A stretch of DNA of 64,000 bases, taken from positions 1 through 64,000 of the forward strand of contig DXJO01000046.1 in assembly GCA_019057475.1 (NCBI GenBank), given 5' to 3'. Source of the stretch: Candidatus Thorarchaeota archaeon (GTDB lineage: Archaea; Asgardarchaeota; Thorarchaeia; Thorarchaeales; Thorarchaeaceae). The notes under the pieces are model-generated. The model worked only from the letters and a program-made list of their open reading frames with translations. It ran no database searches and had not been told where the DNA came from. This document shows positions 18,787 through 45,018 of the stretch, one piece after another. Position 1 is the first letter of the stretch, and every line of letters starts with the position of its first letter. Made by a program: the position numbers and the translations under genes.

Positions 18787-19033
18787 AGTAATCGCCTCGG
18801 GGTCTTTGCTCAGGCGCGGCATTGCGGTTTAACTAGTTTCGGATACGGAGTTTGCACCATTCGAGGCGCTCTCACGCCAATCATGAATGACTGCAGATCT
18901 ACAGTCAAATGTGGGTCAATGTGTTCAGGACTATCAAGTCTCCTGCAATTGTTGTGGGTGTTTTGGGGATAATACACGGGTCTTTTTGGCCTGCATGGAC
19001 AAGGGAGATGGGCCATGGACCGGAGGTGCCCAG

Positions 19034-20608
19034 TTGACTGAGGAGTCCTCAAACCGTATATGCAGAGCATGCAAGAGCAAAGGTGCCACTCACCTGTGTG
19101 AAGATTGTGGAGCAGTGCTCTGCTCGAATTGTCTTGAAACCAAGTCTACATCTTCATACGTATGCAAAGATTGTCATAGTATATTGGGCACTCCGTTGCC
19201 CGGGCAAAGGTTTGAGGAATGCAGTGACTGTGGGTCTGAGAATCTGAGTGTAGGTAGGCGGATGGAGGAGATATGTCCCGAGTGTCACTCTACCCGCACC
19301 ATCTTGGTGGATGTTAAGCAAAGGAGCATCGCACAAGAACTCAGGCAGGCAATCAACAGCTTGCAGTATGGCCACATAAAATTGAGAGAACTCAATAACA
19401 GACTAATCGGAGCAAAGCGCCTGCTCGTTTCCTTGAGGATGGCTAACTTCTTGCACTATAGGTGGCTGGATGACAAAATCCAGAGCACACAGGAGGAGCT
19501 ACCCGCAATCAAGAATCGGATAGGAAACCAAGCAGACATGTTAGCCAGGCAAATTGCAGCTGAAACAAAGGGTTTGATGAACACTGCCTCCTGGTCCGCC
19601 TCCCAGTTTCCGTTCATTGAAGGTGTTACAAACAGGGTGACGCATCTGGTCAACCAGTACAAGCACTCTGTGGACGAAGCATTGAGTGAAGCCGATCTTA
19701 CCTTGAAGGACATTACAAAGCAACTAGACGGATTGAACTATTACCGGTCACGGTTCTCTGGTTTTTACGAGCAAACTGAACTCTCAATCAACGAACTGCC
19801 TGTCTGTGCGCTACCCAAAATCAAAGTCACAGGGAGCGACTTCCTCAAGCATGACAAGGCAACTGGCACTCTCTTCATCACGAACAGGAGACTCGTCTTC
19901 ATTGGGCAGACAGGTGTTGTTCGCAAGAAAACTGAGATTATCTTTGACTTTCCGCTTCTCTACCTGACCTCTATCGAGGAGGATGGTAGATTCAGGAAGA
20001 GAATTGTTCTGAAGATGAAACAAGGCGAAGTGAAGATTTCCTGCAGTGAGCAAACGAAGAAAGTACTACCGGATTACGTCGAGATTGCTAAGAAGTTTGA
20101 CAGGTATATGCAGACAGACCTGCAGAAGGTACGGAAACTAGAGCAGGTAAATGTCAACGTAAGCGACGTCAGACTCAGGATTGAGGACCTGATTTATTCG
20201 TTGAATACGGGAAGGAATAGACCGAGATCCTGTATGACATACCCACAGACACCGGCTGGAGCGTACTATGCTGAGCCATCAAGTCCCCAACCGAGGTATG
20301 CCCACCGCGATTACGGAAGCTATCGTCAAGGGGCTCAACTCAAGGACCACCTGGAGAGGACAATAGATAGACGTGCATATCAGCAGTATCCAGGTGCAAG
20401 AGGCGAGATGGTGGCAGAAATTGAAACCCTCAGGAGAAACGCATCATCTTTGGACAACGCATTACGTGATACTGTTCATCTCTTCAGGGGAGGAAGACTT
20501 GTTCCAGAGGATTTCATCAGACGGTACAAGGGACTGATGCGTGACTCATACTATACAAGAAAAGAAATCGAAAGAAAATCTTCAAGAGACGCGGGCTACT
20601 ACAGGTAA
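19034..20608 (+). CDS. ESCRT-associated multidomain protein: Zn fingers, coiled coil, PH/GRAM(GLUE)-like domain, steadiness-box-like C-terminus
   Basis: GGAGGTG RBS before TTG 19034; six CxxC; GTLFITNRRLVF; LDNALRDTVHLFRGGRLVPEDFIRRYKGLMRDSY; adjacent to the ESCRT-III gene. Confidence 0.7.
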   Translation: MTEESSNRICRACKSKGATHLCEDCGAVLCSNCLETKSTSSYVCKDCHSILGTPLPGQRFEECSDCGSENLSVGRRMEEICPECHSTRTILVDVKQRSIAQELRQAINSLQYGHIKLRELNNRLIGAKRLLVSLRMANFLHYRWLDDKIQSTQEELPAIKNRIGNQADMLARQIAAETKGLMNTASWSASQFPFIEGVTNRVTHLVNQYKHSVDEALSEADLTLKDITKQLDGLNYYRSRFSGFYEQTELSINELPVCALPKIKVTGSDFLKHDKATGTLFITNRRLVFIGQTGVVRKKTEIIFDFPLLYLTSIEEDGRFRKRIVLKMKQGEVKISCSEQTKKVLPDYVEIAKKFDRYMQTDLQKVRKLEQVNVNVSDVRLRIEDLIYSLNTGRNRPRSCMTYPQTPAGAYYAEPSSPQPRYAHRDYGSYRQGAQLKDHLERTIDRRAYQQYPGARGEMVAEIETLRRNASSLDNALRDTVHLFRGGRLVPEDFIRRYKGLMRDSYYTRKEIERKSSRDAGYYR

Positions 20609-20610
20609 CC

Positions 20611-21234
20611 TCAAATGCCTAGCTCGCTCTCCAGAGATTTGATAGCTTCTTCGAGTTCATCGGTCTGGCTGGCAGGTCTAGTGTCAGTTGAGGCTTCTGC
20701 TAGTCCTGCCTCCTTGTCTATCTCTTGCATGGAAGCAGCCAAATCATCCGTTGTGATCTCCGGCATCGTGGCATGAAATGCATCATCAGCGATACCACTC
20801 TCGATTTCGAATTCCTCTAAGCGCTGAGCTATCTCATCGACATTAGCGACTACCTTCGTGGCATCGGTTGCATTTCCCAGCAACCCAAGGATCTTGGCGA
20901 CCTCATCCATGGCGCGATTCGTCTTGGCAGCTGTCTGCGCACGGTTGACATGAGCGAGAATTTTGAGGATGTTGAGCCGCGACCTATCAACAGAAAGCGC
21001 AAACCTACGAAACCGGACCATCTCGGTCGCATAGGTTCGAAATGCGTTCACCTGTCCGGCCTTGCGTGCACGCACAGCCCTGCTCTTAGTTCCCCGCTCC
21101 TCCTTCTCGAGCTTGTTCCGTTGTCGTTCCAGCTGCTTCGCTAATATTCGCAGCTCGCTCTTGACTTCTCCAATGTCGGGTTTCTTCCGACCCCAAGAGA
21201 AAGCCTTTTTTATTGTACCCAAGTGCCTCACCAA
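20611..21234 (-). CDS. ESCRT-III subunit, Vps2/24/46 (CHMP1-3)-like, Snf7 family
   Basis: Basic helical hairpin LRILAKQLERQRNKLEKEE...KAGQ...RTYA.E.VR; acidic C-terminal half; MIM1-like ELEEAIKSL. Confidence 0.9.
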   Translation of the reverse strand: MVRHLGTIKKAFSWGRKKPDIGEVKSELRILAKQLERQRNKLEKEERGTKSRAVRARKAGQVNAFRTYATEMVRFRRFALSVDRSRLNILKILAHVNRAQTAAKTNRAMDEVAKILGLLGNATDATKVVANVDEIAQRLEEFEIESGIADDAFHATMPEITTDDLAASMQEIDKEAGLAEASTDTRPASQTDELEEAIKSLESELGI

Positions 21235-21411
21235 GTCCGCAGGTTATGACCCAACAACCGGAGATGCAAATCCGCGTTTAAACTTTCGTAGCCCCACCCT
21301 AGCACAGTTGGGAAGCACCTCGGAGGAATGGTTGATTCTCAGTTGGTCAACGGCGAAGATAAAACACAGACATTCTTAATAGCTTACAGCACATCTCACA
21401 CTTGAATTCGC

Positions 21412-22641
21412 ATGTCAGGATCAGATAGCGACAGGTTAGACATTGGGCTCAAGAATCTACTCGACAAAGCGATAGAGTTGGACAATAGAGGAATGAAGAA
21501 AGAAGCTTGTCAGTACTATCTGCGAGCCAGCAAGATTCTCATCAAGCTCTCAAAGTCTACGTCCCTCCCTTCTGTTCGAAAGCATTACTTCAAGCGAGCC
21601 CAGGAGTGTGTTGATAGAGTCCGATACCTCTCAGGAATCAAGAAGAAGGCCCGTGGGCCAGTTGATGGCCTGCAGACTCCTCTAAAGAGCGATATCAGAG
21701 CAGTCACTGAGTCGGCTGTTAGTAAGCGACCTGATGCCACTCCCGAGCCAGACGAAGATACTAAGAGGCTCCAAGAGATGATTGCGGATACAATTGTCAC
21801 AGAGCGCCCCAACGTCAATCTGTCCGAGGTCGCCGGTCTCGACGATGCAAAACAAGCCATCTACGATGCGATACTGGCACCGATGAAGCATCCAGAGTTA
21901 TTCAAAGGAAAAGCGAGGCAGCCGTGGAGAGGCATCCTGTTGTACGGTCCAGCGGGCTGTGGGAAGACATTGATAGCGAAAGCAGTTGCAGCCGAAGTCA
22001 ACGCCACATTCTTCAACGTGTCAGCCGCCAATATAGTGAGTAAATGGCTTGGCGAATCTGAACGTCTAGTCATGCGCCTCTTTGAGATGGCAAGAAAGAA
22101 CCAACCAGCAATCATCTTCATGGACGAGCTGGATTCAATTGGCGTTTCAAGGTCCGGGGATGATGTTGGAGGCGAAAGGCGGCTAAAGACTCAGTTGTTA
22201 ACAGAGCTGCAGGGTCTCGCAAGCGACCAGAATGAGAGAATTACGCTAATTGGCGCAACCAATCTCCCGTGGGAATTGGACTTTGCTTTGAGGTCCCGTT
22301 TCGAGAAGCGAATCCATGTACCGCTACCGGATAAGAGAGGACGAAAAGAGATTTTCAGGATTCATATCGAAGATGTAGAGTTAGCATCAGAAGTGGACTT
22401 TGAGGAGCTTGCAAGTCTTAGTGAGGGGTACAGTGGAAGGGACATCGGTGTGGTCTGTAGAGAGGCGGCAATGGAACCCATAAGAGACCTTCAGAAGACA
22501 GGAAGAATGGAAGAGGAAGCGGAGATACTGAACCTTCGCCCTGTTTCGAGAGAGGACTTTCTTGGAGCCATTGAGAATATCAGGCCAGCGACGTCCCCAG
22601 AAGATATCAAGAAGTACATTGACTGGGCGGAGGGGTCGTAG
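21412..22641 (+). CDS. vps4: Vps4 AAA ATPase (MIT domain + AAA)
   Basis: MIT AIELD...EA...Y; VAGLDDAK, PWRGILLYGPAGCGKT, SKWLGESE, FMDELD, ATNLPWELD, EGYSGRDI. Confidence 0.95.
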   Translation: MSGSDSDRLDIGLKNLLDKAIELDNRGMKKEACQYYLRASKILIKLSKSTSLPSVRKHYFKRAQECVDRVRYLSGIKKKARGPVDGLQTPLKSDIRAVTESAVSKRPDATPEPDEDTKRLQEMIADTIVTERPNVNLSEVAGLDDAKQAIYDAILAPMKHPELFKGKARQPWRGILLYGPAGCGKTLIAKAVAAEVNATFFNVSAANIVSKWLGESERLVMRLFEMARKNQPAIIFMDELDSIGVSRSGDDVGGERRLKTQLLTELQGLASDQNERITLIGATNLPWELDFALRSRFEKRIHVPLPDKRGRKEIFRIHIEDVELASEVDFEELASLSEGYSGRDIGVVCREAAMEPIRDLQKTGRMEEEAEILNLRPVSREDFLGAIENIRPATSPEDIKKYIDWAEGS

Positions 22642-22644
22642 GGC

Positions 22645-23373
22645 TTGGGTATCAAGGAGCGACAGCGAGAGAAGAAGAAGACAGAAGAACCTGTCAAAGA
22701 TGCTGCCGAGCCCTCGGTGGTTATGAAGCAGACTACTGCTAGTGATGATTCCGCACACATACCAGAGATTGTTGTAAAAGTGGATGGTGGGTCCAATGCA
22801 ACTGACACCATCGAAACTGCTGTCGTTGAACCAGAACAAATGATGGACACTGAAGCGGCCGCCGTAACCGAAATCGTGCCGCGATGGGGGAACATAGGAG
22901 AAGCTGAGTGGATGTACAACATTCCCACGAGGTCGCAGGACCTGGTTCTCTGGGCCGAAGAATGGGGAGACTTCCTGCTTGAATGGACAGAATTCGAGAA
23001 GATTCATGTTCTCTCTGTTTCAGCATTCATTTCGAAACCCCCATTCAAGGACATACTTGGGAAAGTCAAAGCCTTTAGATCAATCGGAGACTCGTTAGTT
23101 GGGAAAGATGTTGCTGCATGGCTTGATCGGAATAGAGAACAACTCAGAGTGTACTGGAGACCACTGGGGGAGTGGGCGGACTTGGTCTACAGATGGGCTC
23201 TGGACACAGGCATACTTCGTCTCGATGTGAAGTCACTGGTCATCCAAGAAGCAGAGCAGGCTTTTTCGAAACTTCCTGAAGAGGACATCCACGGGATAAT
23301 GGCTCTACTTGTTGAGAGGGGATTTGCCAAGTGGGTTGATAAAAAAGCTGGGGCTATTGTTGTCAAAGTCTAA
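22645..23373 (+). CDS. vps25: ESCRT-II Vps25-like protein with acidic N-terminal extension
   Basis: W..EWGDFLLEW and VYWRPLGEWADLVYRWA..TG match Vps25 WH1/WH2. Confidence 0.85.
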   Translation: MGIKERQREKKKTEEPVKDAAEPSVVMKQTTASDDSAHIPEIVVKVDGGSNATDTIETAVVEPEQMMDTEAAAVTEIVPRWGNIGEAEWMYNIPTRSQDLVLWAEEWGDFLLEWTEFEKIHVLSVSAFISKPPFKDILGKVKAFRSIGDSLVGKDVAAWLDRNREQLRVYWRPLGEWADLVYRWALDTGILRLDVKSLVIQEAEQAFSKLPEEDIHGIMALLVERGFAKWVDKKAGAIVVKV

Positions 23374-23378
23374 TCGAT

Positions 23379-24137
23379 TCAGGCTTCGGAAGTGCCTCCG
23401 CTCTCTGAATCATCTCTTGATCTCAAACCAGGGAAGTAATATCGTCCACCCGTGCTGAATCTGATGTCGGCAACAGCCATGCCGGCATCCACTAGACTAG
23501 TGAGAACCTGACGAGCGTGATCTTCTGACCACTTCAGGTTCATCATGACCTCTTCAATCGAAACGTACCCCTTCAAGGCCGCCAAGTTAATTACATCGGA
23601 TTGGTCTCGACGAAGCTCAAGGGGACGAAGCTCCACGACCTTTACGCCTCCTCTCAGAGTTCGTATGCCGGGTATTAGACCGTGTTCGGCGACTCGGTTC
23701 ACTGCCTCGATAACATCACTGAAGCTTACTGCCTTGAATTGAGGAAGCCGTTTAACCACCTCAACAATCAGCTCTGCGAGACCCATGAGTCCCTTCGAAG
23801 CGTGGATTGTGGCGACGTCAAGTATCGCCAACCCAATGTAGTCATAGAATTCGTCAAGGGTCAGACCTTGCGGAACAGACCTCATAGATTGCACAGACAG
23901 GTCCAACATATTCATTGCGTTAGGAAATCTTTCAAGGATTCTTTCATGGTCAAGGAACCGAAAGATATCCGTCCCCAGACGCCTCAGCTCACCGATGTTG
24001 GACTTGACTTCTTGAACCAGTGCCTCCGATTCTCGCTCGAATGTTCGGATTTCTACCGCACCGAGGTCGTATATCATCTTCAGCTGGTCCAACGTGGCAA
24101 TTGAAGCAAATATCTCAGTTTGAAGTCGCTCATGCAT
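23379..24137 (-). CDS. ESCRT-II Vps22/EAP30-like protein with Vps28-N-like N-terminal domain
   Basis: DEFYDYIG..I, GLMGLAEL, PLEL..DQ..V..LA...GYVS...LKWS..HA..VL..L...GMA..D, YYFPG (Vps22); N-terminal EIFASIATLDQLKMIY. Confidence 0.85.
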   Translation of the reverse strand: MHERLQTEIFASIATLDQLKMIYDLGAVEIRTFERESEALVQEVKSNIGELRRLGTDIFRFLDHERILERFPNAMNMLDLSVQSMRSVPQGLTLDEFYDYIGLAILDVATIHASKGLMGLAELIVEVVKRLPQFKAVSFSDVIEAVNRVAEHGLIPGIRTLRGGVKVVELRPLELRRDQSDVINLAALKGYVSIEEVMMNLKWSEDHARQVLTSLVDAGMAVADIRFSTGGRYYFPGLRSRDDSESGGTSEA

Positions 24138-33048: not shown

Positions 33049-35859
33049 TCAGAAGAACTGATCAAGGGTCGTAAATCCTAGAAGCTCCTCGAAATCAATC
33101 CCCACTGAATCAAGTACCTGGCCGAAGACTGACCTTAGTGTATCAGTGTATTTGTCCGTATCCAGCCAGTAGCTCTTTTCCTTTGCAAGCTCAATCGGCA
33201 ATACGCCTCCATTGCCCTTAGTCTTAATGTACTCAACTATTGTACCAGGTGGGACATCATATCCGGCATTATCAAGCATATGGGCTGCCCGAACATGCTG
33301 AGGTGTGGTCTTCCCATATTGATCGAGTTTCTTGGTCAACTGGACGCGGAATGCCAAATCATCTGGAGTGAAGGGATCGGCTTTGCCCTCCAACCGGTCA
33401 ATGGCTGTGTTTACAATCTCACGAATCTCGTCTTTTGCTGCTTCGAATCCTTCGAGATTGTCCACCTTGCTAAGTACCGTCAGCATCTCCTGAAACGCGT
33501 CCTGGATGAATCGAGGCGTGTTTCTCTTCTTGCCGCTTAAGCCTTTCACTTCAACGTATCCTGTGGAGTAGACGCCAATGTAGTTTTTCTTAAGTTCAGA
33601 AAGAGCGACGTACTTGTAGGTTTTCTCCACTTCCAAATCGATTCCAAGCGCCTCCTGAGACCACTTCACAAGCTCATCTTGCTGTTCCTTGGATGGATTA
33701 TCCAGAAACACGGAGTCTGTGTCCCCATATAGTACTCTTACACCCATGGACTCTGCTTTTTCTTTCGTTTTCATGATTGCATTTCGTCCATAAGCCGTTA
33801 CGCTCTCAGCTGCCGGCATGCAAAACAGCTCAAAGTGTCGAGCTCCGGTGACACCATAGGACGCATTGAGATACACCTTGAGCGCCTTCTCAACGACGCT
33901 ATACCAGGTCCAGGTTCTCTCATCCAATGACTTATCCTTGCTTTTCGCCTTGAACCACATCACTCTAGTATCTCTGAAGAAGCCAATGATTTCACTAATC
34001 ATGCCTGTATGCTTCTTGCAGGTCCAATGACCTGTTTCAGGAACTTTGTTGTCTGTCGCAACCCTGCATTCTTCGTGTGGGCAATCGACTGTTTCATAGC
34101 TGATATTATGCCTCTTCATAATTGTCGGATAAAGACTTGCAAAGTCAAGCACCGTGGCATTGAAGTGAACTCCCGCGATTGGGTCGATTACAATTGCACC
34201 CTTGAACGCCTTGTCCTTTATCATAGCCTTAGTGTGTGCTTCCGCAGATTTGGCAGCCTCTATGTCAGACTGTCGAGGAATCAGAGCCCCCCGAGAACGA
34301 TGTTCTTGCCTGAATAGGGACTGAATCCAAGAGGAAATACCCAGACGCGTCACATCCTCCATCGACAAGCGGGATATGCGCATCAACAAGACAATCAATC
34401 GGAGGAGTAGATTATCATCGAATCTTGTCAGGTCCAATGTTATGTTAGCGTCACGCCAACAGTACTGTGCCAGCTCATAGTAGGGAAGAGATGAGATGTC
34501 AGTGGTGAGTTCGAGTTTTCCTACGCCTAGAAGGCCTTGGGCAATCGTTTCCAGGTTCGACCGATCATAAGCACCTGACATAGCATAGATTCGGATGGAG
34601 GGGTTCTTGAGGAACCTATAGAGATCCACGTGGATTCCGCTACGAAGGAATGCGGTGTCATTCGCGCGATTCATTCTGATAGGGCAGTACGTATCCATAT
34701 CGACCTTCAATCGCTGAGCCCTATGATATAGGTAATTCAGGTCGAATGCATCTCCTACAAAAGTCAGAACAATCGGATAATTATTAATGACTTCGAATGC
34801 CTTCACAAGCATCTCTGCCTCGTCGTCGAAATACACAATCTCAAGACCCTTTGGAAAATCATCCCTCTTCTTGCCTGTGGGATGTCCTTTTCGCTTGAGC
34901 ACGAAACACATGCCGTAACCTTCATTATCGGAGAGACCAATTGCTGTGACCTTGTTGGGGGCTTTCTGCGTGTTTGGCATTCTGTTTTTGACAGGAACAT
35001 AGACCTCGATATCTAGGGCAATCCGCCTAATGTCAGGAACCTCACCAAAGAACATGGGAGCATAGGTTTCGATGATTCTCTCAATACGCTCCGAACCAGG
35101 AATGGTTCTCTTGAACTCTTTCATAGTGTTTTTATCGATCTCCGGGGGGCTGGCTACAAGAGTCCCATTCTCAATCTTGTAGATGAGACCGGAAACGAAT
35201 CTCATATCGTAGGTGTAGGTATGATGATATCGGATGTTGGCCTCCCAGGCATGATTCACTTCCTTGATTCGCAAACTCTCTCTCATCGAATCTGGGCGAC
35301 CACCAATGCTGAGGGGATCATTGGCGATTACCTTGGTCATAGCAACCTGCTTGTCACTGAGCAAATCAGTGAGCTCAACTGCTTCAGTGCGTATGAAACC
35401 AGGATGACGTCGAATTCCATTAATCTTCTCGACTTCCTGTTGCGACAGGTCGGTGTACATATACGGCTTGTGCCCGCTATTATCAGTCCAGAAATGAATC
35501 TTCTTTGTTTCAGGATTGTAGAGGCTAGCAATAGCCTTGTTCGTATTCCTATCGTAGTCAATTGAAAGAAGGAACGAGGGTGGAAGATCCTTTGGCATGT
35601 CGCGGTAGCCAATTTCATGAGTTTGCTTGACCTTGTCCACGGCGGCCGGCTTCTTTTCCTTTTCATCATTAGGTGGAGATGGCTTAACGTTATCTACGCG
35701 TTCAACACTTGCATTGACGGAGGTTTTTCTAGATTGTGATGCTTTCGTCACAATGACATCTGGCGTCACTTCAGCACCGGAATTTTCATGACCACCGAAG
35801 TAATCATCCAAAGTGGACTGATTTCCATCTTCAGGTTTCTCGTCATTCACCAAAGTCAC
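33049..35859 (-). CDS. polB1: Family B DNA polymerase, PolB1 group
   Basis: LLSIDYD...D.SGHKPY N-terminus of PolB1; DIEV, FDL.YL, Y...DA; DFASLYP, K...NA.YG, YGDTDS. Confidence 0.93.
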   Translation of the reverse strand: MTLVNDEKPEDGNQSTLDDYFGGHENSGAEVTPDVIVTKASQSRKTSVNASVERVDNVKPSPPNDEKEKKPAAVDKVKQTHEIGYRDMPKDLPPSFLLSIDYDRNTNKAIASLYNPETKKIHFWTDNSGHKPYMYTDLSQQEVEKINGIRRHPGFIRTEAVELTDLLSDKQVAMTKVIANDPLSIGGRPDSMRESLRIKEVNHAWEANIRYHHTYTYDMRFVSGLIYKIENGTLVASPPEIDKNTMKEFKRTIPGSERIERIIETYAPMFFGEVPDIRRIALDIEVYVPVKNRMPNTQKAPNKVTAIGLSDNEGYGMCFVLKRKGHPTGKKRDDFPKGLEIVYFDDEAEMLVKAFEVINNYPIVLTFVGDAFDLNYLYHRAQRLKVDMDTYCPIRMNRANDTAFLRSGIHVDLYRFLKNPSIRIYAMSGAYDRSNLETIAQGLLGVGKLELTTDISSLPYYELAQYCWRDANITLDLTRFDDNLLLRLIVLLMRISRLSMEDVTRLGISSWIQSLFRQEHRSRGALIPRQSDIEAAKSAEAHTKAMIKDKAFKGAIVIDPIAGVHFNATVLDFASLYPTIMKRHNISYETVDCPHEECRVATDNKVPETGHWTCKKHTGMISEIIGFFRDTRVMWFKAKSKDKSLDERTWTWYSVVEKALKVYLNASYGVTGARHFELFCMPAAESVTAYGRNAIMKTKEKAESMGVRVLYGDTDSVFLDNPSKEQQDELVKWSQEALGIDLEVEKTYKYVALSELKKNYIGVYSTGYVEVKGLSGKKRNTPRFIQDAFQEMLTVLSKVDNLEGFEAAKDEIREIVNTAIDRLEGKADPFTPDDLAFRVQLTKKLDQYGKTTPQHVRAAHMLDNAGYDVPPGTIVEYIKTKGNGGVLPIELAKEKSYWLDTDKYTDTLRSVFGQVLDSVGIDFEELLGFTTLDQFF

Positions 35860-35958
35860 TCACTCCATAGATGAGCTATTGAGTCCTGATAAGCACTTCC
35901 AATGAACCAGAAATACATTCCGAGCAGTTCATATGAGAAGCCAACCTCTTGCAGGTTC

Positions 35959-36396
35959 ATGGTGCGCTCACTCACTACTGAAGCGAAACGAGTTATCTTC
36001 GCGCGCATGGAGCCTGGCGAGGATATTCTAAAGACGATTGAGGCCGTTTCTTCGGAACATGGCGTTCGGACAGGCCAACTGACATTGATAGGAGCAGTAT
36101 CAATGGCCAGCCTGGGATTTTTTGATAGAGAGAGCATGGAATACAAGACATTCACTGTGGACAAAGACCTTGAAGTTGTGTCATGCATGGGAAACATCGC
36201 ATCCACACATGAGGGGGGGCTCATTGTACATGCTCACATGGTTGTTGCTGATCAAGACGGTACGTGCTATGGAGGTCATCTAATGTTGGGGTGCAAAGTT
36301 TCTGTCACAATGGAATTGATCATCACGGAACTGGACCAAGATGTTAGGCGAGCCAGAGATGAAGCGACCGGTCTGAATCTGCTTGATATCAAGTAA
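35959..36396 (+). CDS. PPC/DUF296 domain protein
   Basis: PGEDI, IGAV, EVVS..GNI, HAH, GGHL. Confidence 0.92.
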   Translation: MVRSLTTEAKRVIFARMEPGEDILKTIEAVSSEHGVRTGQLTLIGAVSMASLGFFDRESMEYKTFTVDKDLEVVSCMGNIASTHEGGLIVHAHMVVADQDGTCYGGHLMLGCKVSVTMELIITELDQDVRRARDEATGLNLLDIK

Positions 36397-36409
36397 GACA
36401 TCAGACTGC

Positions 36410-36862
36410 TCATTGCTTCAAACCAAGCAGGTCAGTTTGTGCCCGGATAGTTTTGGCAACGCTGTCAAGCTCATCGCGTGGAGATATCTTCTCACGGTAG
36501 TCGTCTGGAAACATGAAACCGAATTTATCACCTTCGTTCCTAGGTATTACATGTATATGTAGATGGGGAACCTCTTGTCCCGCACCAACCCCATTGGCAA
36601 TCACATTGATTATGCCATCTGGTTCAAATGCTGAGTGCACCTTGCGGGTCAACTCCGCCAGACGCACACCAAGACGCTTAGCGACTTTGGTATCAACGTC
36701 TAGCATGTTCACATAGTGCTGCTTTGGAATCAACAAGCAGTGCCCTTTGCTAATGGGAAATATATCCATGAAGGCCATCGTGAATTTGTCTTCGAAAATG
36801 ACAGATGCGGGTATCTCACCACGAACTATCTTGCAGAAAAGGCAGGATTCATTGTCGCTCAT
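36410..36862 (-). CDS. HIT family hydrolase
   Basis: CLFCKI, DIFP..KGH.L.IPK.H, AGQEVPHLHIHVIPR. Confidence 0.95.
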   Translation of the reverse strand: MSDNESCLFCKIVRGEIPASVIFEDKFTMAFMDIFPISKGHCLLIPKQHYVNMLDVDTKVAKRLGVRLAELTRKVHSAFEPDGIINVIANGVGAGQEVPHLHIHVIPRNEGDKFGFMFPDDYREKISPRDELDSVAKTIRAQTDLLGLKQ

Positions 36863-36980
36863 ATCGGTCACTGACTGTGGGAGTTTGAAATAAATCGTTC
36901 GAAATTCGTGCAAAGACACGCGCACAAGCCTCATTAGCGCACATCTCATAATCACAACTTGGCTTCACAGGTGGTCCCAG

Positions 36981-38141
36981 TTGAGCAGGAGAATGAAGGT
37001 CTTCTTTGACCAAACACAGAACGAACGTGGGAAACTAGACACAACATATTCTTCACTTGGTAGTCTTCTCACTGATAATGATCTCGACGTAGAACCATAT
37101 ACCGAATTCATGATACTAGCCAAGAGTATCAAAGAAGCAGCAGTGTTAGTCTTTGGATGCCCAAACAGCTCCAAGCTGCGACCTACAGAGATAGATGTTC
37201 TAACGCATTATGTAAAAGCTGGCGGGGGGCTGTTCCTGCTCTCACTGTCGGGCGGCGACCGGGGCCTGATGAACAATCTCAGCAAGCTGTCCAAAACCTT
37301 TGGCATTGAATTCGATAATACAGCTGTAAAGGATGAGAGAAGCAATGCCGGTTTGCCCACAATGCCGTTTATCAGTAACCTCATAGCACATCCATGCACT
37401 GAAGATGTTCAAGATATTCTATACCCGTCCGGGTGTTCACTGAAGGTGTCAGGGAAGGCAGTGGCATTAGTATCAACATCTGAAATGGCGGACCCGGCAA
37501 ATCAACCCGTAATTGCCCTCGCTGAATACGGAAAGGGGCGAGTCATCTGCTCCGGCAGCTATGAGATATTCCGAAAAGGAGGCGGGCTTAAGCATGCTGG
37601 AAATAAGACATTTGCAATCAATGCCTTAAGATGGCTCAGTGGAGATGTCAGACTAGCCAAACCAAGCAAGGTTGCCAAGGCCAAGAAAGGTATGCCCGCT
37701 GCAGAAGTTTCACCTGCAAAGCTCGACGAGATGGAGGGTGCTCTTCGAAGGCTCGTCAATGCGGTATTTGACCTGCAGAAAGACATAGGAAAAGTAGGAG
37801 AGCAAGTCACAAGAGTCGACAGCAACGTAGAGATGCTGCGCAACCAATTCCAGGATTTTGCAGAAAAAACGCAACAGCAGTTCGGAGTAATGATACCAAC
37901 CAAGCAATTCAAGACTCCAGAAGAGAATCAAGAGGTGGATTTGCAGGCGGACATCAATGCACTCCAGCGAGAAGTCAAGTCCATACAAAAGCTGAAAGAT
38001 CACATCAATCAAAGGCACTCCTCCGGAATAATGGAGAAGGAAACCTATGATGAACAAGTCAAGAAACTCGATACTCGCCTGCAGAACTTGAAGAAGCATC
38101 TAAAAGCGAAGAAGAAAGAACTCAAGGATCTCGGGCAGTAG
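36981..38141 (+). CDS. Cytoplasmic GIFT (IFT52/DUF4350-like) domain protein with C-terminal coiled coils
   Basis: VFFDQT.NE, YVKAGGGL, GGD...NL..L...FGI, YPSGCSL.V, GRV...GS..IF, N..F..N...WL; no signal peptide. Confidence 0.75.
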   Translation: MSRRMKVFFDQTQNERGKLDTTYSSLGSLLTDNDLDVEPYTEFMILAKSIKEAAVLVFGCPNSSKLRPTEIDVLTHYVKAGGGLFLLSLSGGDRGLMNNLSKLSKTFGIEFDNTAVKDERSNAGLPTMPFISNLIAHPCTEDVQDILYPSGCSLKVSGKAVALVSTSEMADPANQPVIALAEYGKGRVICSGSYEIFRKGGGLKHAGNKTFAINALRWLSGDVRLAKPSKVAKAKKGMPAAEVSPAKLDEMEGALRRLVNAVFDLQKDIGKVGEQVTRVDSNVEMLRNQFQDFAEKTQQQFGVMIPTKQFKTPEENQEVDLQADINALQREVKSIQKLKDHINQRHSSGIMEKETYDEQVKKLDTRLQNLKKHLKAKKKELKDLGQ

Positions 38142-38144
38142 GTT

Positions 38145-39764
38145 TCACGCGTTATCTGCGGAATGCTCATTGATCTGTTCTTCATCCAGATAGTAATCAA
38201 AGGTAGCGAATATTCCGCTGTGAATCGCGGTAAGGTTTTTCTCGATGTCTTTGAGAACAAACAAAGCACGTGGTAGTCGACCACTGGACTGCTTGGCAAG
38301 GTATCTCCCAGGAGCCTTAACAAAGGACCAGAACGTGCCAATCTTATCAGCAAGGCCGTAGCCAACAAGAATTAGGATGACGCTGAAGAGGTAGATGTTT
38401 CGGGGAGGGATGAGTATCATAAGACTGAGAGCAATCGGCAGCCAAAGCATGGACAGTGAGAATGGTACTGTTTCGTCACGATTTGTGACCATCTGCGCAG
38501 ACGAGAATATAGAGAAGAAGGGAGCAAATAGAGTGAAGTAGTACTTGTAAACGCCGCGAGGACCTGTTAGATGAACCCAGAGCATCATTATCATTGTGAG
38601 CAACAGTAGACGACGAAGATAGAAACTCTTCTTGTCACCATCCTTCTTCTGGAGGAACATGAAGCCAGCAATAAGAGTCACACCGAACCAGAGTAAGAAG
38701 CCGTAGTATACAAGCCCATCAAGTATCTGTGCAAGCACGGGCATGCCTACAACTACCGCCAGAATCTGAAGCCGCATCGGACTTCCATAGCCAGGAGGGT
38801 CTGTCAGTGATACGAGAGGAAAGCCTCCCATGGCCAAACGTATATTGACCAACATATTTGGCTGCGCTAAGAAGAATGGGAAGATGATAGCTCCAGCAAA
38901 GGCGAAGACGATTAGGACGCTAATCATGAACTGGCGAATGTCAAGGGGCTCCGCAATACGTTTCAAGAACCCCTTCGCTCTCTCTGCAGTAGATGTTATT
39001 ATCCTAGAGGAATACTGCGTTCTTAAAATCAAGTAAATGACAAGCGGAATACCCAAGAACCACGCAATCTGTTTGAATAGTGCTCCTGTCACAATGAGTA
39101 GCGTTGCAGCATCACGCTTACCCTTGGTGAGCATGTAGAAGCCTGAGAAAAAGAAGAAGATGAACGGTGCTGTGTTCAGCCACACAAAGGTGGTATGGTA
39201 CAGAACATTCGGATTCATGAGGTAGGTGAAAGCTGCGGCTTCGCCAACTCGTCTGTTACCTGACAGCTGCTTGGCAATTCCATATACCGGCAAAGCAGTG
39301 AAATATCCAAAGATTGCGAGAAGAAGACCAATTCCCCAACCATCCACCGGAATCATAAGACCGATAGCATACAAAATGGCAGTGAGTGGAGGGAAGATGT
39401 AAGCTCCATTCTCATTGACAAATCCATCTAGTTCAATATATCCGAACCCGGGGCTGTAGGGCATCACGCCTCTGAGCATATTGTTGCCCCAATGAAAGTA
39501 GTAGAACGAATAGTCCGTGTAGCCCTCGAATTGGTACACCAAAGTGTAGCCGAAAAGGTCGAGCTCTCCGTTTCCGAGCCAGACACCACGAAACCTCCAG
39601 AAACTGGAGCTGGTGAAGTCAACTACGGCGGCATGAAAAACCTGATTCCAAACAAGAGCAGCAAAACAAAGAATGAGTATCAAGACTGCATTCTCAAACA
39701 GGAAACGTAGTCCACGCACTGCCCATGAGAATAGAAACCGTTCAGCTCGTTTGGCAATGCGCAT
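38145..39764 (-). CDS. GT-C membrane glycosyltransferase (GT87/PIG-M-like)
   Basis: YTDY, G.MPY, YIFPPL, YLMNP, KQ; more than 10 TM helices. Confidence 0.75.
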   Translation of the reverse strand: MRIAKRAERFLFSWAVRGLRFLFENAVLILILCFAALVWNQVFHAAVVDFTSSSFWRFRGVWLGNGELDLFGYTLVYQFEGYTDYSFYYFHWGNNMLRGVMPYSPGFGYIELDGFVNENGAYIFPPLTAILYAIGLMIPVDGWGIGLLLAIFGYFTALPVYGIAKQLSGNRRVGEAAAFTYLMNPNVLYHTTFVWLNTAPFIFFFFSGFYMLTKGKRDAATLLIVTGALFKQIAWFLGIPLVIYLILRTQYSSRIITSTAERAKGFLKRIAEPLDIRQFMISVLIVFAFAGAIIFPFFLAQPNMLVNIRLAMGGFPLVSLTDPPGYGSPMRLQILAVVVGMPVLAQILDGLVYYGFLLWFGVTLIAGFMFLQKKDGDKKSFYLRRLLLLTMIMMLWVHLTGPRGVYKYYFTLFAPFFSIFSSAQMVTNRDETVPFSLSMLWLPIALSLMILIPPRNIYLFSVILILVGYGLADKIGTFWSFVKAPGRYLAKQSSGRLPRALFVLKDIEKNLTAIHSGIFATFDYYLDEEQINEHSADNA

Positions 39765-39839
39765 GATGTAAAGGCTGGCAGAACCTCTGAATAATGTTTG
39801 TGATTAGAGAGAGAACCAGGTCATGGACCAAGCGTATCG

Positions 39840-41927
39840 CTACATGAGAAGTTTCGCAGTGGCAGATGATCTACTCTTAGAAACCTCGATGGTTGGTACA
39901 CTATCCCAGCCTTGAATGTCTGTGTGAGTTATCAGCAAAATTTGTTCGAAGCTCTGATCGTTCACCAAGTTACTAACAACAGAGGCCCTGCGGTTCTTGT
40001 CAAGGCCTCCAAGCGGTTCGTCAAGCATAACGCATCGAATCCGGGGAGCAAGCGAGGGACTGTCCCTTAGCGGCCGAATGGAGCTCATCGTTCTACTAAT
40101 TCCTAGACGAAGTCCTAGGCTAACGGCAGTTCTGTCACCAAAGCTCAGTTGTGTTGTTTTCTTCGTGGCATTGTCTCGCTGGTCGTGTATCTTCAATGCC
40201 AATCCCGCGCCAGAGCGCCCTCTCGCAGCTGTCGGAACTAGATCAATTCCAGTATATTGATTGTTTGTAAACGCGCGAACGTATTCGTTCGTAGCACCCC
40301 TGATAATACCCAACAGCCGCTTTTGCACCACGTAATCAGCCACAAAGCTGCTAACTAGTTTTAATCTAACATACTTGGTATGCTCATTCAGACTCCTCAA
40401 CGAATCCATCTCTGCACCAAGCTCACGCATCTTCACGGATCTGGCTTCTAATTCCCTTATGGCGCCTTGCTCCCTGTCGATGAGTTTTCTGAAGGAGTCG
40501 CATTGGCTCACGATTTCACCGAGCTTTGTGGAGAGTACATCAAGCCTTCGCTGAAGATTAAGGACACTCTTCCCTCCATGCTTCTTGAGGAGCGACTCAA
40601 TGTCAGTCACCCCAGCCTTCTTGATAGCGTCCAAGAGCTTCGCCTGCTGCTTCTCAAGGCGTTTCTCGGCTTTATCAACATCCTTCTGTTTCTCTTTGAT
40701 ACGGCACACTGCATCATACGCCTTGGAAATATCAGATAAGTGCTCCTCGACACCACGGAGCTCATCTGACACCTCCACACGACGACCCTTGAATGTCTTG
40801 GCCTTTTCTTCGTCCTGTTTCAGTACCTGCCTGTATTTCACTAGCAGATTCTCGCGCTCTTCGACGGAAAGGGGCTTTGCGCAGGTTGGACATTCAGCGA
40901 CGCCTGAATCGTCATCTACAGAAACACCTTCAAGAGTCACGACCTTCTCACTGAGGTCCGTCTTGGTCGCATCGATTGCTCCTAGCTCGCGGTCAACTTC
41001 GGTTGTTTCTGTTTCGAGTTTCTTGCGACTGGACTCGTATCGCTTGGCTTCTTTCTTGAGAATTTTCAGACGTGCCTGCACAACTTCAGTTTCAGCCAAT
41101 GAAAGACCAGCATCTGCAAGGTCAGAGTCCCGATAACGAATGCTTGAGTTATGGTCGCGCTCTATTCTCTCGACTTCTTGAGTTAGGGCGTGTATTGCCT
41201 CAAGACCTTCAGGATCAGGCATTTCCTTCAGATGGTCCTTGATCTCCCCGGCTTCGGCTTCGTTGCTTTTGAAACTGCGTTCATAATCCTCGATTCTTAT
41301 CTTTGTATCATTGATCTGTTCCGCGATATGCTCAGGACGAATGTAATCGTCTTCAAGCCCTCTAATCTGGGCTTCAAGGTCCAACTCGAAGCTCTTCAGA
41401 TGGTCTGACATCTTGTCCAATAGCTCGATGTTGTATATCCTCACTATGAGGTTTCTTAGCACGGTGGGAGTAGCATTGGCGATTAGAGCCACTTCCCCCT
41501 GGCGGACCAGCAACGTGTTCAAGGCTTGCTGCAGATCAAGATTCAGAATCTGCATGAGCTCATTGCTCACAGATTTGCTCTTATCAGCAAGACGCTTCCA
41601 TGCATCCCCCGTCCGTGTGTACAAAACAACAGCCATTCCTTTGGCTGAACTATAGGACCGGTCCATTTTATACTGAGTCCCAGCAACCTCGAAGACTAAG
41701 ATCGCCTTGCACCAAGTTGATGTGAAACTGACGAGCTCATCATTGGTAAGACCAACAGCATCAGGCCCCCACAGAGCCCATAGTATTCCTTCGAATATTG
41801 AAGACTTCCCAGTCGAGTTCGGACCCCTGATGAGTATCAGTCCTCCAGGCAGTTCGCCCTCTCCCTCAGGGAGCTCGAGGTTTCGAAATGGCTTGAAGTT
41901 CTTCAATTCGAGACGAAGTAGTTTCAC
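39840..41927 (-). CDS. rad50: Rad50 ATPase
   Basis: GPNSTGKSS, RQGE, Zn hook CPTC, LSFGD, LDEP, ITH. Confidence 0.92.
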   Translation of the reverse strand: MKLLRLELKNFKPFRNLELPEGEGELPGGLILIRGPNSTGKSSIFEGILWALWGPDAVGLTNDELVSFTSTWCKAILVFEVAGTQYKMDRSYSSAKGMAVVLYTRTGDAWKRLADKSKSVSNELMQILNLDLQQALNTLLVRQGEVALIANATPTVLRNLIVRIYNIELLDKMSDHLKSFELDLEAQIRGLEDDYIRPEHIAEQINDTKIRIEDYERSFKSNEAEAGEIKDHLKEMPDPEGLEAIHALTQEVERIERDHNSSIRYRDSDLADAGLSLAETEVVQARLKILKKEAKRYESSRKKLETETTEVDRELGAIDATKTDLSEKVVTLEGVSVDDDSGVAECPTCAKPLSVEERENLLVKYRQVLKQDEEKAKTFKGRRVEVSDELRGVEEHLSDISKAYDAVCRIKEKQKDVDKAEKRLEKQQAKLLDAIKKAGVTDIESLLKKHGGKSVLNLQRRLDVLSTKLGEIVSQCDSFRKLIDREQGAIRELEARSVKMRELGAEMDSLRSLNEHTKYVRLKLVSSFVADYVVQKRLLGIIRGATNEYVRAFTNNQYTGIDLVPTAARGRSGAGLALKIHDQRDNATKKTTQLSFGDRTAVSLGLRLGISRTMSSIRPLRDSPSLAPRIRCVMLDEPLGGLDKNRRASVVSNLVNDQSFEQILLITHTDIQGWDSVPTIEVSKSRSSATAKLLM

Positions 41928-43234
41928 CTGGATTCCTCCTTCGAAATCGTATCCAGAGTGAGCTTCTCCCCACTGCGTCCAACTGTAATCTCAAGAGCAC
42001 GTACTGCAATTCGAGTTAGTGTTTCAGGGTCGTACTTCTCGTCGAGTGATAGCGTTTCTAGATAAGTCTTGAAATCCTCCTCGGGATCTTCGATAAGATA
42101 CTCGGATTCGATCTCAGGGTATGCTGCTTCATCATGGTCGGTTTCGCGATGCCTTATTGTCCATACAAGCTGTACGATGTTGTACTCGGAGTCCTGTGAT
42201 AAGACCTTCATGCGAAATGATTCCATTGCGAGGCTAAGGTCGAACCCACTGATTCTCGAAGACCCACCTTTGAAGACTAGTCGCACTCGTGCGGCAGTAG
42301 CCGAATCCCACTGTCCCTTCAGATTCTTCTCGTCGAACAATGATTCCATCCTTTGAACGATTGATTCAACTGTATCATCGGCCTCTATTGCAATCTTCTC
42401 GGTGTAAACAGGCCGTGCAAAATCAATGTGGTGCGGAGTGACTATCGGAGCCGTTCCACGCTCAATGTCAACTACAAGGAATCCTTTCTCATGTCGAATT
42501 TCATCAAACCTCCACCGCTCTGGAGAACCAGCGTACCACGCATTCTTTGCATGCTTGTGCTGATGGTGGTCGTGACCTAATGCGATGTAGTCATATCCCA
42601 TGCTGAAGATGGCTGGTTGAAGGCTACGATCAAGGTCCATTCCGTGTGCCACTGCAATAGATGGACGGTCAGAATCCGGAAGCTGGTGGGTTGTGATCCA
42701 GTCGTTGAAGGTGGTTACTGCGCCAGCAGATTCGAGAACGTTGTACTCAATGAAAGGAAAACAATAGACATTCAGTTTCTCGTATGAACGCACGAGTGGT
42801 TTTCCTTCCCGGAGTGCAAGTTTCAGCTCCTGTTGGGTCGCCACATCCAGACCGGGAATTGCCATCTTCAAGCTATCAAGAAATGACACCTCAAGATTCC
42901 GGTATATGCCATGATTGCCCTCCAGTATCAGAACAGGAATGCTGGTTTTCTCAATGAATTTCTTCAGCACAGTAATGACTGTTTCTCTCGCAACAACAGG
43001 AGGTTGAGTGGGGTTGTACTCCCAAGGTTGATCATAGAGGTCCCCAGAATGAACCACGATATCAACTGGCGGATCGAGCTCGGCTATCCTGGTAAACAGC
43101 TCTGAGAAACGCTCGTAGAAGTCGTTCTCGAGGACTCTGGTGCGCATCTCAACTGCCCAGACATTATGTCTCACACCTTCCCGGGGCTTCGTGCCAAGAT
43201 GGGTGTCAGAAATATGCGCAACTCTTACAGTCAT
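41924..43234 (-). CDS. mre11: Mre11 nuclease
   Basis: HISDTHLG, SGDLYD, GNH, ALGHDH, YAGSPE. Confidence 0.92.
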   Translation of the reverse strand: MTVRVAHISDTHLGTKPREGVRHNVWAVEMRTRVLENDFYERFSELFTRIAELDPPVDIVVHSGDLYDQPWEYNPTQPPVVARETVITVLKKFIEKTSIPVLILEGNHGIYRNLEVSFLDSLKMAIPGLDVATQQELKLALREGKPLVRSYEKLNVYCFPFIEYNVLESAGAVTTFNDWITTHQLPDSDRPSIAVAHGMDLDRSLQPAIFSMGYDYIALGHDHHQHKHAKNAWYAGSPERWRFDEIRHEKGFLVVDIERGTAPIVTPHHIDFARPVYTEKIAIEADDTVESIVQRMESLFDEKNLKGQWDSATAARVRLVFKGGSSRISGFDLSLAMESFRMKVLSQDSEYNIVQLVWTIRHRETDHDEAAYPEIESEYLIEDPEEDFKTYLETLSLDEKYDPETLTRIAVRALEITVGRSGEKLTLDTISKEESR

Positions 43235-43245
43235 CGCTCTATTCC

Positions 43246-45018
43246 TCAGAGAATGTGTTTCTCACGCTTCTTGCTGGACCTCTTACTCTTGTACTTGTCC
43301 TTATCGCGTTCGAAGATAGTATCAAACAACGGAATCTTGACAGGTAATGGCAGCTCTCGATATGAGGCTGTCAGCAATGCCTCTCCTCGTGACATCACTC
43401 GGAACTCATTCTCAAATCCAGAGATGTTGACACTTGCGTTATCGATGCATGACCTAATCTCACGTTCATTTCCCATCCGCAGGTTAATTTCCGTGTTCAT
43501 CTGACTGAGAATCACATTGTCAAGTACGCTCACTTGTTGACTTACAACCAGGAGTCCGATATTGAACTTCCGTCCTTGCCTTGAGATATCCTTGAATACC
43601 GACCGTCCCTTCATGAGTTCTGGATTGAGGATTGAAGGAGCTTCCTCTACTGTAATCTGAATGACCGGTAAATTACGCGGATCTTTCACCTCAGCAGAGT
43701 CACTTGTCCCTCCACGCCCATAGAAACCCCGGGCCATTTTCTTGACTCGATTGAAGAAGGGATTTGGTAGTCGCATCTTACCTTGCGTTTCGAAATCTCC
43801 TAGGTTACCACTACTCTTCACAGCTCGCCTCATGTCAGACAAGGTCCGGGTAACCACGGTTGTCAGGAGGAATTGCTCAGTGTCACTCATCAGGCTTGTA
43901 TTCACGACTAGAACACGGCCAGTTTCCATCGCCTCATAGATGGCATCAAGAACCGATGTCCCGTCCTTGATGAATATTGGAGAACGCTCCAGGAATCGGA
44001 GCCTCCGCTGGACCGCTTTCATTGTCCCCTTGGGTGTAGACGTCCCCTCAGGTTCGTCCTTCATTTCAAGTATCTCAGCGATCCAGTTCTGGTGCTTGGA
44101 CGCATACGTGGCATCAATGAATGAGTTCATCTGGGGGGTGAATTCAGTGATAGAGTACAAATCCCGAGGTTGAATCTCATCCCACTTAATCCTGATTTCC
44201 TTGGCGTACTTCTTTACCTCCCGCGGCGTGGCTCTCAAGTGGGTTGTCAGGTAGTAGAAGGTTCCCAAAACCTCTGATCTAATCGTCGGACTCATGGCTT
44301 CGACTATGTGGTGGATTCCGTATTTGTCTACACCCTTAGCGAATTCATCATGCGGGTCGATACAGAAGGCAGATATCCGAAGCACGTCGCTATCAGGATT
44401 TGTGCTAGCCTCGATATTGGTGTCAATCAATGACTTGATGAGAACCATCATGAGATTGCTCTTTCCAGATCCTGTTGAACCAAATATCCCAACGTGCATG
44501 GGCAGGAACTTGGAAGGAATCATCACAGGCACATCAAGAGTTGCTTCGCCTACTTGGAGGTCTCCGACATACATCTCACCGTCGGTCTGAGATTCAAGCA
44601 TCATCCGGACTACTGAGTCTGATATTCCGCGCACTGGTCTGTAGACAGACGCAAGATGATCGGGCAACCGGCGTGGAGAACGAAACACCCACTCATTATC
44701 AATTTGCTCTGCGTAGCCAAGCATTCGGCCCTGCACGTCCAGAAGCATGTTGCGTTCGATTCCAGAGAGATACGCGTCGCCTTCCACCATGAGTGTGCCA
44801 GCAACGCGGCTCATGTCATCTACTTGTCTCAGATAGTTTTGGAGGCCTAGAACCCGGAAGAAAAAGACCCTTTCATGACCATCACGCTCGGAAGTGATCA
44901 TGAATATCTCGCCTACACTAATGTCGCGATTGTTTCCCATTATCTCTAGGTTAGTCTGGTTACCCACACCGACTTTTCCGAATAGCTCGCCTAGGTTGTC
45001 TTTGTTGAACACCATCAT
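43246..45018 (-). CDS. herA: HerA helicase/translocase
   Basis: H.GIFGSTGSGKSN, DPHDEF, VEEA, RQGRKF, SQQ, SQMNT. Confidence 0.93.
   Translation of the reverse strand: MMVFNKDNLGELFGKVGVGNQTNLEIMGNNRDISVGEIFMITSERDGHERVFFFRVLGLQNYLRQVDDMSRVAGTLMVEGDAYLSGIERNMLLDVQGRMLGYAEQIDNEWVFRSPRRLPDHLASVYRPVRGISDSVVRMMLESQTDGEMYVGDLQVGEATLDVPVMIPSKFLPMHVGIFGSTGSGKSNLMMVLIKSLIDTNIEASTNPDSDVLRISAFCIDPHDEFAKGVDKYGIHHIVEAMSPTIRSEVLGTFYYLTTHLRATPREVKKYAKEIRIKWDEIQPRDLYSITEFTPQMNSFIDATYASKHQNWIAEILEMKDEPEGTSTPKGTMKAVQRRLRFLERSPIFIKDGTSVLDAIYEAMETGRVLVVNTSLMSDTEQFLLTTVVTRTLSDMRRAVKSSGNLGDFETQGKMRLPNPFFNRVKKMARGFYGRGGTSDSAEVKDPRNLPVIQITVEEAPSILNPELMKGRSVFKDISRQGRKFNIGLLVVSQQVSVLDNVILSQMNTEINLRMGNEREIRSCIDNASVNISGFENEFRVMSRGEALLTASYRELPLPVKIPLFDTIFERDKDKYKSKRSSKKREKHIL

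Follow-up and report, generated by a model that had tools for sequence, protein, structure and literature searches.

A Vps28N-Vps22 fusion and its predicted steadiness-box partner in the ESCRT core locus of Thorarchaeia

How ESCRT-I is linked to ESCRT-II in Asgard archaea without Vps36 is the question raised by five contiguous ESCRT genes of a thorarchaeon. They lie in the window, i.e., the whole stretch of 64,000 nucleotides that was analysed. The first gene (19034-20608, + strand) encodes a Znr_CC_PH_SB protein of 524 aa, an ESCRT-I-like adaptor (asCOG cog.011556, orthologue of ThorAB25_08990). It is followed by genes for ESCRT-III (20611-21234, - strand; Snf7 E 2.9e-10; orthologue of ThorAB25_09000, 'ESCRT3A'), the Vps4 ATPase with MIT, AAA and Vps4_C domains (21412-22641, + strand), Vps25 with a charged N-terminal leader (22645-23373, + strand; ESCRT-II (Vps25) E 2.4e-12) and a 252-aa Vps28N-Vps22 fusion (23379-24137, - strand; orthologue of ThorAB25_09030). 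All open reading frames were found where the preliminary description had placed them, and the domain calls agree. Since the strands alternate (+, -, +, +, -), the genes do not form a single operon; a promoter and terminator scan of the locus, by a method unsuited to archaea, gave chance-level results.

The order SB, ESCRT-IIIA, vps4, vps25, vps22 was identical in 59 of the 60 Thorarchaeia loci that had enough flank to be counted, AB_25 and SMTZ1-45 among them, and the thorarchaeal identity of the locus was likewise supported. The sister family (G001) has the Zn/PH/SB gene on a separate contig. With a probability of about 0.7, we regard the five genes as the canonical ESCRT core locus of Thorarchaeia, passed on by vertical inheritance, with the fusion and the mechanism proposed below.

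The fusion joins two modules. Residues 86-242 (23412-23882, - strand) form a Vps22 tandem winged-helix pair: an EAP30 domain was recognized at residues 87-224 (E 6.9e-13), the protein matched human SNF8 (E 1.5e-17), and the winged-helix core aligned to 1w7p_A with Z 12.9. Residues 1-81 (23895-24137, - strand), joined to it by a linker (81-89) of low confidence in the model, correspond to the N-terminal head of Vps28, i.e., the SB hairpin with additional helices. With a profile of residues 1-82, the four best PDB matches were N-terminal chains of yeast Vps28 (E 0.003-0.005), and intact Vps28 of Asgard archaea was recovered at E 1e-10 to 1e-19; modelled residues 1-81 aligned to human VPS28 in headpiece 6vme_E (Z 11.0, rmsd 2.3, 79 residues). 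Profile matches and structural alignment thus support the view that the fused hairpin is of the Vps28-N and not the Vps23 type; the Vps28-N and SB hairpin profiles align poorly to each other (19.8%). In the same genome, the Pfam models VPS28 and Vps23_core gave no match; they are too insensitive here, as lineage profiles do find the domains. The VPS28-like residues take the place of the N-terminal helix and helical domain typical of eukaryotic and other Asgard Vps22, and the structural alignment to Vps22 begins at target residue 53-57. The C-terminal four-helix bundle of Vps28 is absent too, the winged helices coming straight after the head.

The fusion was found only in Thorarchaeia, and most other Asgard lineages still have a complete vps28 gene, in most cases immediately before vps22. 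It is full-length in 67 of 72 Thorarchaeia genomes, and in the six tested with the Vps28-N profile there was exactly one match per genome, always on Vps22. At non-thorarchaeal loci, Vps28-N was part of a Vps28 with a C-terminal domain of 116-127 aa in 23 of 24 cases and of Vps22 in none, and at 18 of the 24, vps22 followed vps28 in the same orientation. This neighbourhood suggests fusion by deletion: in the class ancestor, adjacent co-directional vps28 and vps22 genes were most likely joined by a deletion that would have taken out the C-terminal bundle of Vps28 along with the N-terminal helices of Vps22. An Asgard Vps28-CTD profile, which hits PDB 2j9w at 2.6e-13, matched 24 of 30 other Asgard, compared with one weak match in the sister family, none in 86 genomes of the organism's own family and none at E <= 0.01 in its own genome. 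These searches support a loss of the canonical Vps28 C-terminal domain in this lineage.

The Znr_CC_PH_SB protein starts at a TTG, 5 nt past a Shine-Dalgarno-like GGAGGTG motif (19022-19028); its homologues begin at that position, and the longest open reading frame starts at 18887. Along the + strand, an N-terminal Cys-rich Zn-ribbon/B-box-like region (19049-19306; invariant C22, C30, C44, C47, C63, C66, C81 and C84) is followed by a helical stalk or coiled coil (residues 92-247; 19307-19774), a PH domain of the GRAM/GLUE type (19760-20110) and a steadiness-box (SB) helical hairpin (residues 455-521; 20396-20596). The PH domain emerged from structure comparison (MTMR2 Z 12.9, EAP45-GLUE Z 10.3), and residues R286, R297, R319, R321, K322 and K329 are kept at 99-100%; fold and conserved basic residues make it a putative membrane binder. 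The hairpin may be Vps23-like, to judge from weak matches: its profile reached the Vps23/STP22 core at E 0.013, weak by itself, Vps23_core was matched by 14 of 73 orthologues, and structure comparison gave Z 9.9, which unrelated hairpins equal. Both domains, as earlier assigned to the partner protein, are supported. Foldseek with whole models returned winged-helix and DH-PH matches only; the DH-PH matches, though many, arise from a PH domain that comes after helices and are not taken to indicate a GEF function.

The SB hairpin is predicted to bind the Vps28-N head directly, as the preliminary description had proposed. The modelled complex scored 0.76 against 0.00 for the best control, a score that may stem from likeness to solved Vps23-Vps28 (ESCRT-I) structures. 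Of 80 solved pairs, 58 reach the mark used for such scores, as do 2 of 110 mismatched ones. Contact agreement between runs was 92%, with partner pLDDT of at least 85. The part of the predicted interface that lies on the SB hairpin includes F494, I495, Y498, M502, R503 and Y506 and is no more conserved than other positions (0.71 vs 0.70), whereas the part on Vps28-N is better conserved than the remainder of that hairpin (0.84 vs 0.72, p 0.02). ESCRT-I/Vps22 two-hybrid interactions have been reported for Loki and Heimdall, and the thorarchaeal SB protein 'may interact with Vps28', though the thorarchaeal set has no Vps28 (Hatano 2022, PMC9192718). The head might instead serve chiefly to homo-oligomerise the fusion, in place of the Vps22 helical domain that was lost, with the Zn/PH/SB protein acting separately, e.g., as a CdvA-like self-polymer or a direct binder of ESCRT-III. 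Such a role would fit the two-hybrid self-interaction of thorarchaeal Vps22, the Vps25-bypassing interactions suggested for Thorarchaeota and the resemblance of SB hairpins to CdvA (structural match 9s9g, Z 10.3; Makarova 2024, PMC10936438), but we consider it unlikely given the high-confidence heterodimer prediction, the complementary Vps23 and Vps28 types of the hairpins and the tight synteny.

The window had been described as free of ubiquitin, E1, E2, UEV and JAB genes. Genome-wide searches, with a positive control for ubiquitin only, detected neither ubiquitin nor E2 nor UEV, and matches to ThiF and JAB sit on other contigs, so that this description of the window holds. The genome is 96% complete and has no canonical ubiquitin. 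Ubiquitin was detected in 0 of 72 Thorarchaeia as compared with 217 of 229 other Asgard genomes (positive controls run), while searches without a positive control gave UEV in 0 of 41 genomes and E2 in 0 of 1. Ubiquitin and UEV-Vps23 are both missing from Thorarchaeia, which sets them apart from the eukaryote-type ubiquitin-ESCRT pathway with its UEV reader. The analysis suggests that Thorarchaeia became ubiquitin-free by secondary simplification and do not represent an ancestral stage in this respect. A SAMP/ThiS-like modifier read by the Zn ribbons could have replaced ubiquitin as a protein tag, as the genome encodes six ThiS/MoaD-family, two ThiF-family and one JAB gene. We find this quite improbable: all lie away from the locus, archaea commonly have these families, which were also positive in control genomes, and the Zn/PH/SB protein, present in many ubiquitin-bearing Asgard lineages, is older than the loss of ubiquitin.

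Other ESCRT components are encoded in trans. The ESCRT-IIIB gene is on a different contig from the locus, contig C31 encodes a second Vps22-like (EAP30-like) protein of 780 aa, and a coiled-coil protein (C40:122982-124061) that ends in a divergent Vps28-CTD-like domain is represented by orthologues in 47 of 47 Thorarchaeia; two domains paralogous to this end occur on C19 and C56. Given these genes, together with the ThiS/MoaD, ThiF and JAB genes, the minimal three-protein route from membrane to ESCRT-III in the preliminary description was overstated. The fusion may be only one of several entries into a multi-adaptor system in which the Vps28-CTD-like and C31 proteins feed ESCRT-II in trans, the latter perhaps as a heterodimer with Vps22; a CTD-type link would then persist and the route would not be minimal. 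We rate this as a serious contender of somewhat less than even probability. Besides the distribution and paralogues of the C40 protein, the match of its end to the Asgard Vps28 CTD profile (64.5%, E 6e-5) and the EAP30-like protein, the BAR-Vps28 proteins of Thorarchaeia (Eme 2023; Makarova 2024) speak for it. Against it, the profile similarity spans only some 46 columns, the C40 domain has no Vps28 match in the PDB and no usable Atlas match, the genes are unlinked to the ESCRT locus, and the fusion carries other sequence in place of the N-terminal helices of Vps22. A multi-adaptor system is compatible with the SB-Vps28N contact. Separately, a 411-aa protein (C40:120805-122037), whose orthologues have weak Pfam VPS28 matches, was rejected as a separate Vps28. 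Its orthologues are missed by the Asgard Vps28-CTD profile, searches of its own genome with the Vps28-N and CTD profiles do not pick it up, and the Atlas clusters closest to it consist of Bathyarchaeota and Methanobacteriota proteins.

For the core locus as we read it, the following sequence can be proposed. The basic PH domain would anchor the Zn/CC/PH/SB protein on the membrane, with the Zn ribbons possibly binding cargo, and the SB hairpin is predicted to pack onto the Vps28-N head in the fashion of the ESCRT-I headpiece. The Vps22 winged helices would thereby be brought to the membrane and, by analogy with eukaryotes, bind Vps25. Vps25 may then nucleate ESCRT-IIIB, its two-hybrid partner (Hatano 2022, PMC9192718), and published two-hybrid data on Asgard orthologues are consistent with co-polymerisation of the locus IIIA protein; Vps4 would remodel and recycle the filament. 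Asgard archaea lack a full-length, GLUE-bearing Vps36, and therefore the fusion replaces a Vps28-to-Vps22 link; the bypassed CTD-GLUE link proposed earlier was misframed. It is a tentative idea, appreciably short of even odds, that Thorarchaeia have a tag-free ESCRT in which, after the deletion fusion and the loss of ubiquitin and UEV-Vps23, a lipid-sensing adaptor feeds straight into ESCRT-II, six proteins (the five of the locus plus ESCRT-IIIB) sufficing for the I-II-III-Vps4 scission pathway. If this is confirmed, scission driven by ESCRT-I/II could be reconstituted in a small, ubiquitin-free system. The predicted contact offers a specific, mutable interface for the question of how the two complexes are linked.

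The locus and the two architectures have been published before and are hence no discovery, and the same holds for the lack of ubiquitin, stated for Thorarchaeota together with two-hybrid tests on orthologues of the locus proteins (Hatano 2022, PMC9192718). The AB_25 cluster ThorAB25_08990-09030 (PMC9192718) has the same five genes, order and orientation; its members are called 'SB' and 'Vps22', and the excerpted text of that paper mentions neither a Vps28 head on Vps22 nor SB-to-Vps22 wiring. The name Znr_CC_PH_SB and the proposal that the PH domain is a membrane anchor come from Makarova 2024 (PMC10936438), where the architectures of cog.011556 and the SB-fused Vps22 cog.002769 are as here, and Table S3 assigns residues 1-70 of thorarchaeal Vps22 to the VPS28 N-terminal SB (HHpred 99%). 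The main text gives the SB fusion for Asgard Vps22 generally and assumes that Vps28-C binds ESCRT-II, whereas we find the Vps28-N head on Vps22 in Thorarchaeia only, which narrows the published statement, and predict a direct SB-SB link. The papers retrieved contain no statement of the direct wiring or its lineage restriction, and a 2026 structural-clustering preprint has nothing about the wiring.

Hairpin and winged-helix modules are shared with the eukaryotic ESCRT-I headpiece (Vps23/Vps28/Vps37; 2f66, 2p22, 6vme) and ESCRT-II (1w7p, 3cuq). Unlike these, the locus has no UEV, Vps28 CTD, Vps36 or Vps37, carries the GLUE-like PH domain on the SB protein and places ESCRT-I and ESCRT-II modules on one chain. 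The UEV-Vps23-Vps28 fusion of Heimdallarchaeia (HeimAB125_14070) is likewise a lineage-specific fusion of neighbouring ESCRT genes, but it links two ESCRT-I parts and retains UEV, CTD and ubiquitin, whereas the thorarchaeal fusion spans the ESCRT-I/II boundary and has dropped the CTD.

All five contiguous ORFs are present and were correctly annotated in the preliminary description, and the feature is real: the Zn/CC/PH/SB adaptor (19034-20608, + strand), ESCRT-III (20611-21234, -; Pfam Snf7), Vps4 (21412-22641, +; Pfam MIT-AAA-Vps4_C), Vps25 (22645-23373, +; Pfam ESCRT-II) and the Vps28N-Vps22 fusion (23379-24137, -; Pfam EAP30). The cluster is flanked on one side by tldD/pmbA and on the other by a gene identified from its sequence as aspartyl-tRNA synthetase-like. 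The longest adaptor ORF begins at 18887; because the TTG at 19034 has a GGAGGTG motif ahead of it and the homologue consensus starts there, the originally assigned start at 19034 is probably right. In the convergent pairs at 20608-20611 and 23373-23379 the stops are just 2 and 5 nt apart, and argS and pmbA likewise converge at 16045/16047.

In the AlphaFold model of the fusion, a hairpin (2-24 and 30-53) is followed by short helices that extend to residue 78 and then by a pair of winged helices, joined on through a linker of low confidence (81-89). Structural alignment matched residues 1-81 to the human VPS28 chain of the ESCRT-I headpiece (6vme_E) with Z 11.0 and rmsd 2.3 over 79 residues, and to yeast 2caz_E as well, whereas residues 86-242 fit Vps22 (Z 12.9), bearing out the proposed architecture. 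The four best PDB matches of the N-terminal profile are yeast Vps28 N-terminal chains. Pfam VPS28 is matched weakly by 51 of 88 fusion orthologues and above cut-off by the sister-family orthologue, and Vps23_core is absent among the 25 families listed for the 88. For these reasons, the head is of Vps28 type.

The domain layout described for the adaptor also holds: its N-terminus is rich in Cys and leads into a helical stalk (92-247), which is followed by a PH domain with invariant basic residues, a disordered stretch and a hairpin (455-521). The PH domain is nearest GRAM/GLUE types (MTMR2, Z 12.9; EAP45-GLUE, Z 10.3). Since unrelated hairpins reach equal scores, structure alone cannot discriminate the hairpin type, and evidence for a Vps23-like steadiness box (SB) is weak but consistent.

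With SB and head hairpins each supplied as an alignment, the predicted complex scored 0.76 (best control 0.00), passing a mark that 58 of 80 solved complexes attained, as did 2 of 110 mismatched pairs. Contact agreement between runs was 92% or more, and partner pLDDT was 85 or more. The predicted core places SB F494/Y498/M502/R503 against head F10/A11/A14/T15/Q18; head-side interface residues are more conserved than the remainder of that hairpin (p 0.02), and those of SB are no more conserved than the rest of theirs. The proposed docking of SB on fused Vps28N thus has a predicted interface, but because Vps23-Vps28 is already solved, the pass may come from resemblance to known complexes and not from a real contact in this copy. 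Overall, the computational evidence lends support to SB wired to Vps28N-Vps22, with a probability of roughly 0.7.

Named homologues of adaptor and fusion are nearly all from Thorarchaeota. Of 60 loci with sufficient flank, 59 share an identical gene order, those of the AB_25 and SMTZ1-45 genomes among them; the sister family has its adaptor gene at an unlinked site. One relative's cluster (L179) is rearranged, without ESCRT-III between vps4 and adaptor, and in another the fusion gene lies in three frames (G024:C13:104460-105196; frameshift or assembly error). A profile search found full-length fusion in 67/72 Thorarchaeia genomes, and the start of the profile was missing among the non-Thor matches listed. 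The Vps28-N profile matched once per genome, on Vps22, in 6/6 Thor genomes and never on Vps22 in 24 non-Thor loci. In 23 of the latter it bears a 116-127 aa tail, the Vps28 CTD (PDB 2j9w, 2.6e-13), and in 18 vps22 follows downstream on the same strand. A Vps28-CTD profile matched none of 86 genomes of the source family (source genome completeness 96.4%), gave one weak match in the sister family and matched 24/30 other Asgard genomes. In the simplest reading, a deletion would have fused neighbouring vps28 and vps22 in the Thorarchaeia ancestor.

Ubiquitin was found in 0/72 Thorarchaeia versus 217/229 other Asgard genomes; as this lineage counts as one event, no causal link between fusion and ubiquitin loss is shown. 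The adaptor family occurs also in many ubiquitin-bearing Asgard lineages, and the source genome carries elsewhere six ThiS/MoaD-like genes, two ThiF genes and one JAB gene.

It had been suggested that the fusion bypasses a CTD-GLUE link. Asgard archaea lack full-length Vps36, so no such link existed; the one replaced is more likely Vps28-Vps22, an interaction reported from two-hybrid assays in Loki and Heimdall by Hatano 2022 (PMC9192718). The minimal three-protein route is limited by genes unlinked to the cluster. ESCRT-IIIB, a second ESCRT-III (G000:C56:20136-20618; orthologue of ThorAB25_07240), is the Vps25 partner in published two-hybrid data from the same source. A 780-aa protein (G000:C31:15790-18159, - strand; L014:7791-10133), with a coiled coil and C-terminal Vps22-like winged-helix pair, resembles an 810-aa ORF in the sister-family genome G001 and may form a heterodimer with the fusion. 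Another coiled-coil protein (G000:C40:122982-124061; L017:9034-10065) carries a divergent Vps28-CTD-like bundle at its end; it has orthologues in 47/47 Thorarchaeia and is possibly the BAR-Vps28 described by Eme 2023 and Makarova 2024. Paralogous domains occur in coiled-coil proteins at C19:59851-60441 and C56:66233-67165.

The C40 gene adjoins a D-aminoacyl-tRNA deacylase-like gene. Three genes away, a 1304-aa protein (L017:11140-15054) has, as read from sequence, an apparent helix-turn-helix N-terminus and a very long helical body; the C56 protein has an apparent mid-protein winged helix. Orthologues of a 411-aa helical protein (G000:C40:120805-122037; L017:6806-8041) weakly match Pfam VPS28 and BAR, the VPS28 match probably being spurious because the protein belongs to a wider archaeal family.

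The five-gene feature is already known. According to Hatano 2022 (PMC9192718), ubiquitin is missing from Thorarchaeota; the paper reports two-hybrid assays on ThorAB25_08990-09030 plus ESCRT-IIIB and writes that Vps28 'may' be an interaction partner of the Thor SB protein, though its Thor set lacks Vps28; one possibility is that the fusion served as that partner. Makarova 2024 (PMC10936438) describes SB-fused Vps22 and also Znr_CC_PH_SB, which it places in ESCRT-I and credits with a PH domain that binds membranes; its Table S3 assigns Thorarchaeota Vps22 residues 1-70 to VPS28 N-terminal SB (99%). The literature searched yielded no passage that spells out a direct SB-Vps28N-Vps22 link or its confinement to Thorarchaeia.

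Elsewhere in the window, a 596-aa protein (47329-49119) combines a weak adaptor-complex medium-subunit match (E 3e-4) with a DUF11 Ig-like domain and is possibly a trafficking-related adaptor. The PolB, Rad50-like and HerA-like gene cluster at 33049-45018 (- strand) is an ordinary archaeal repair locus.
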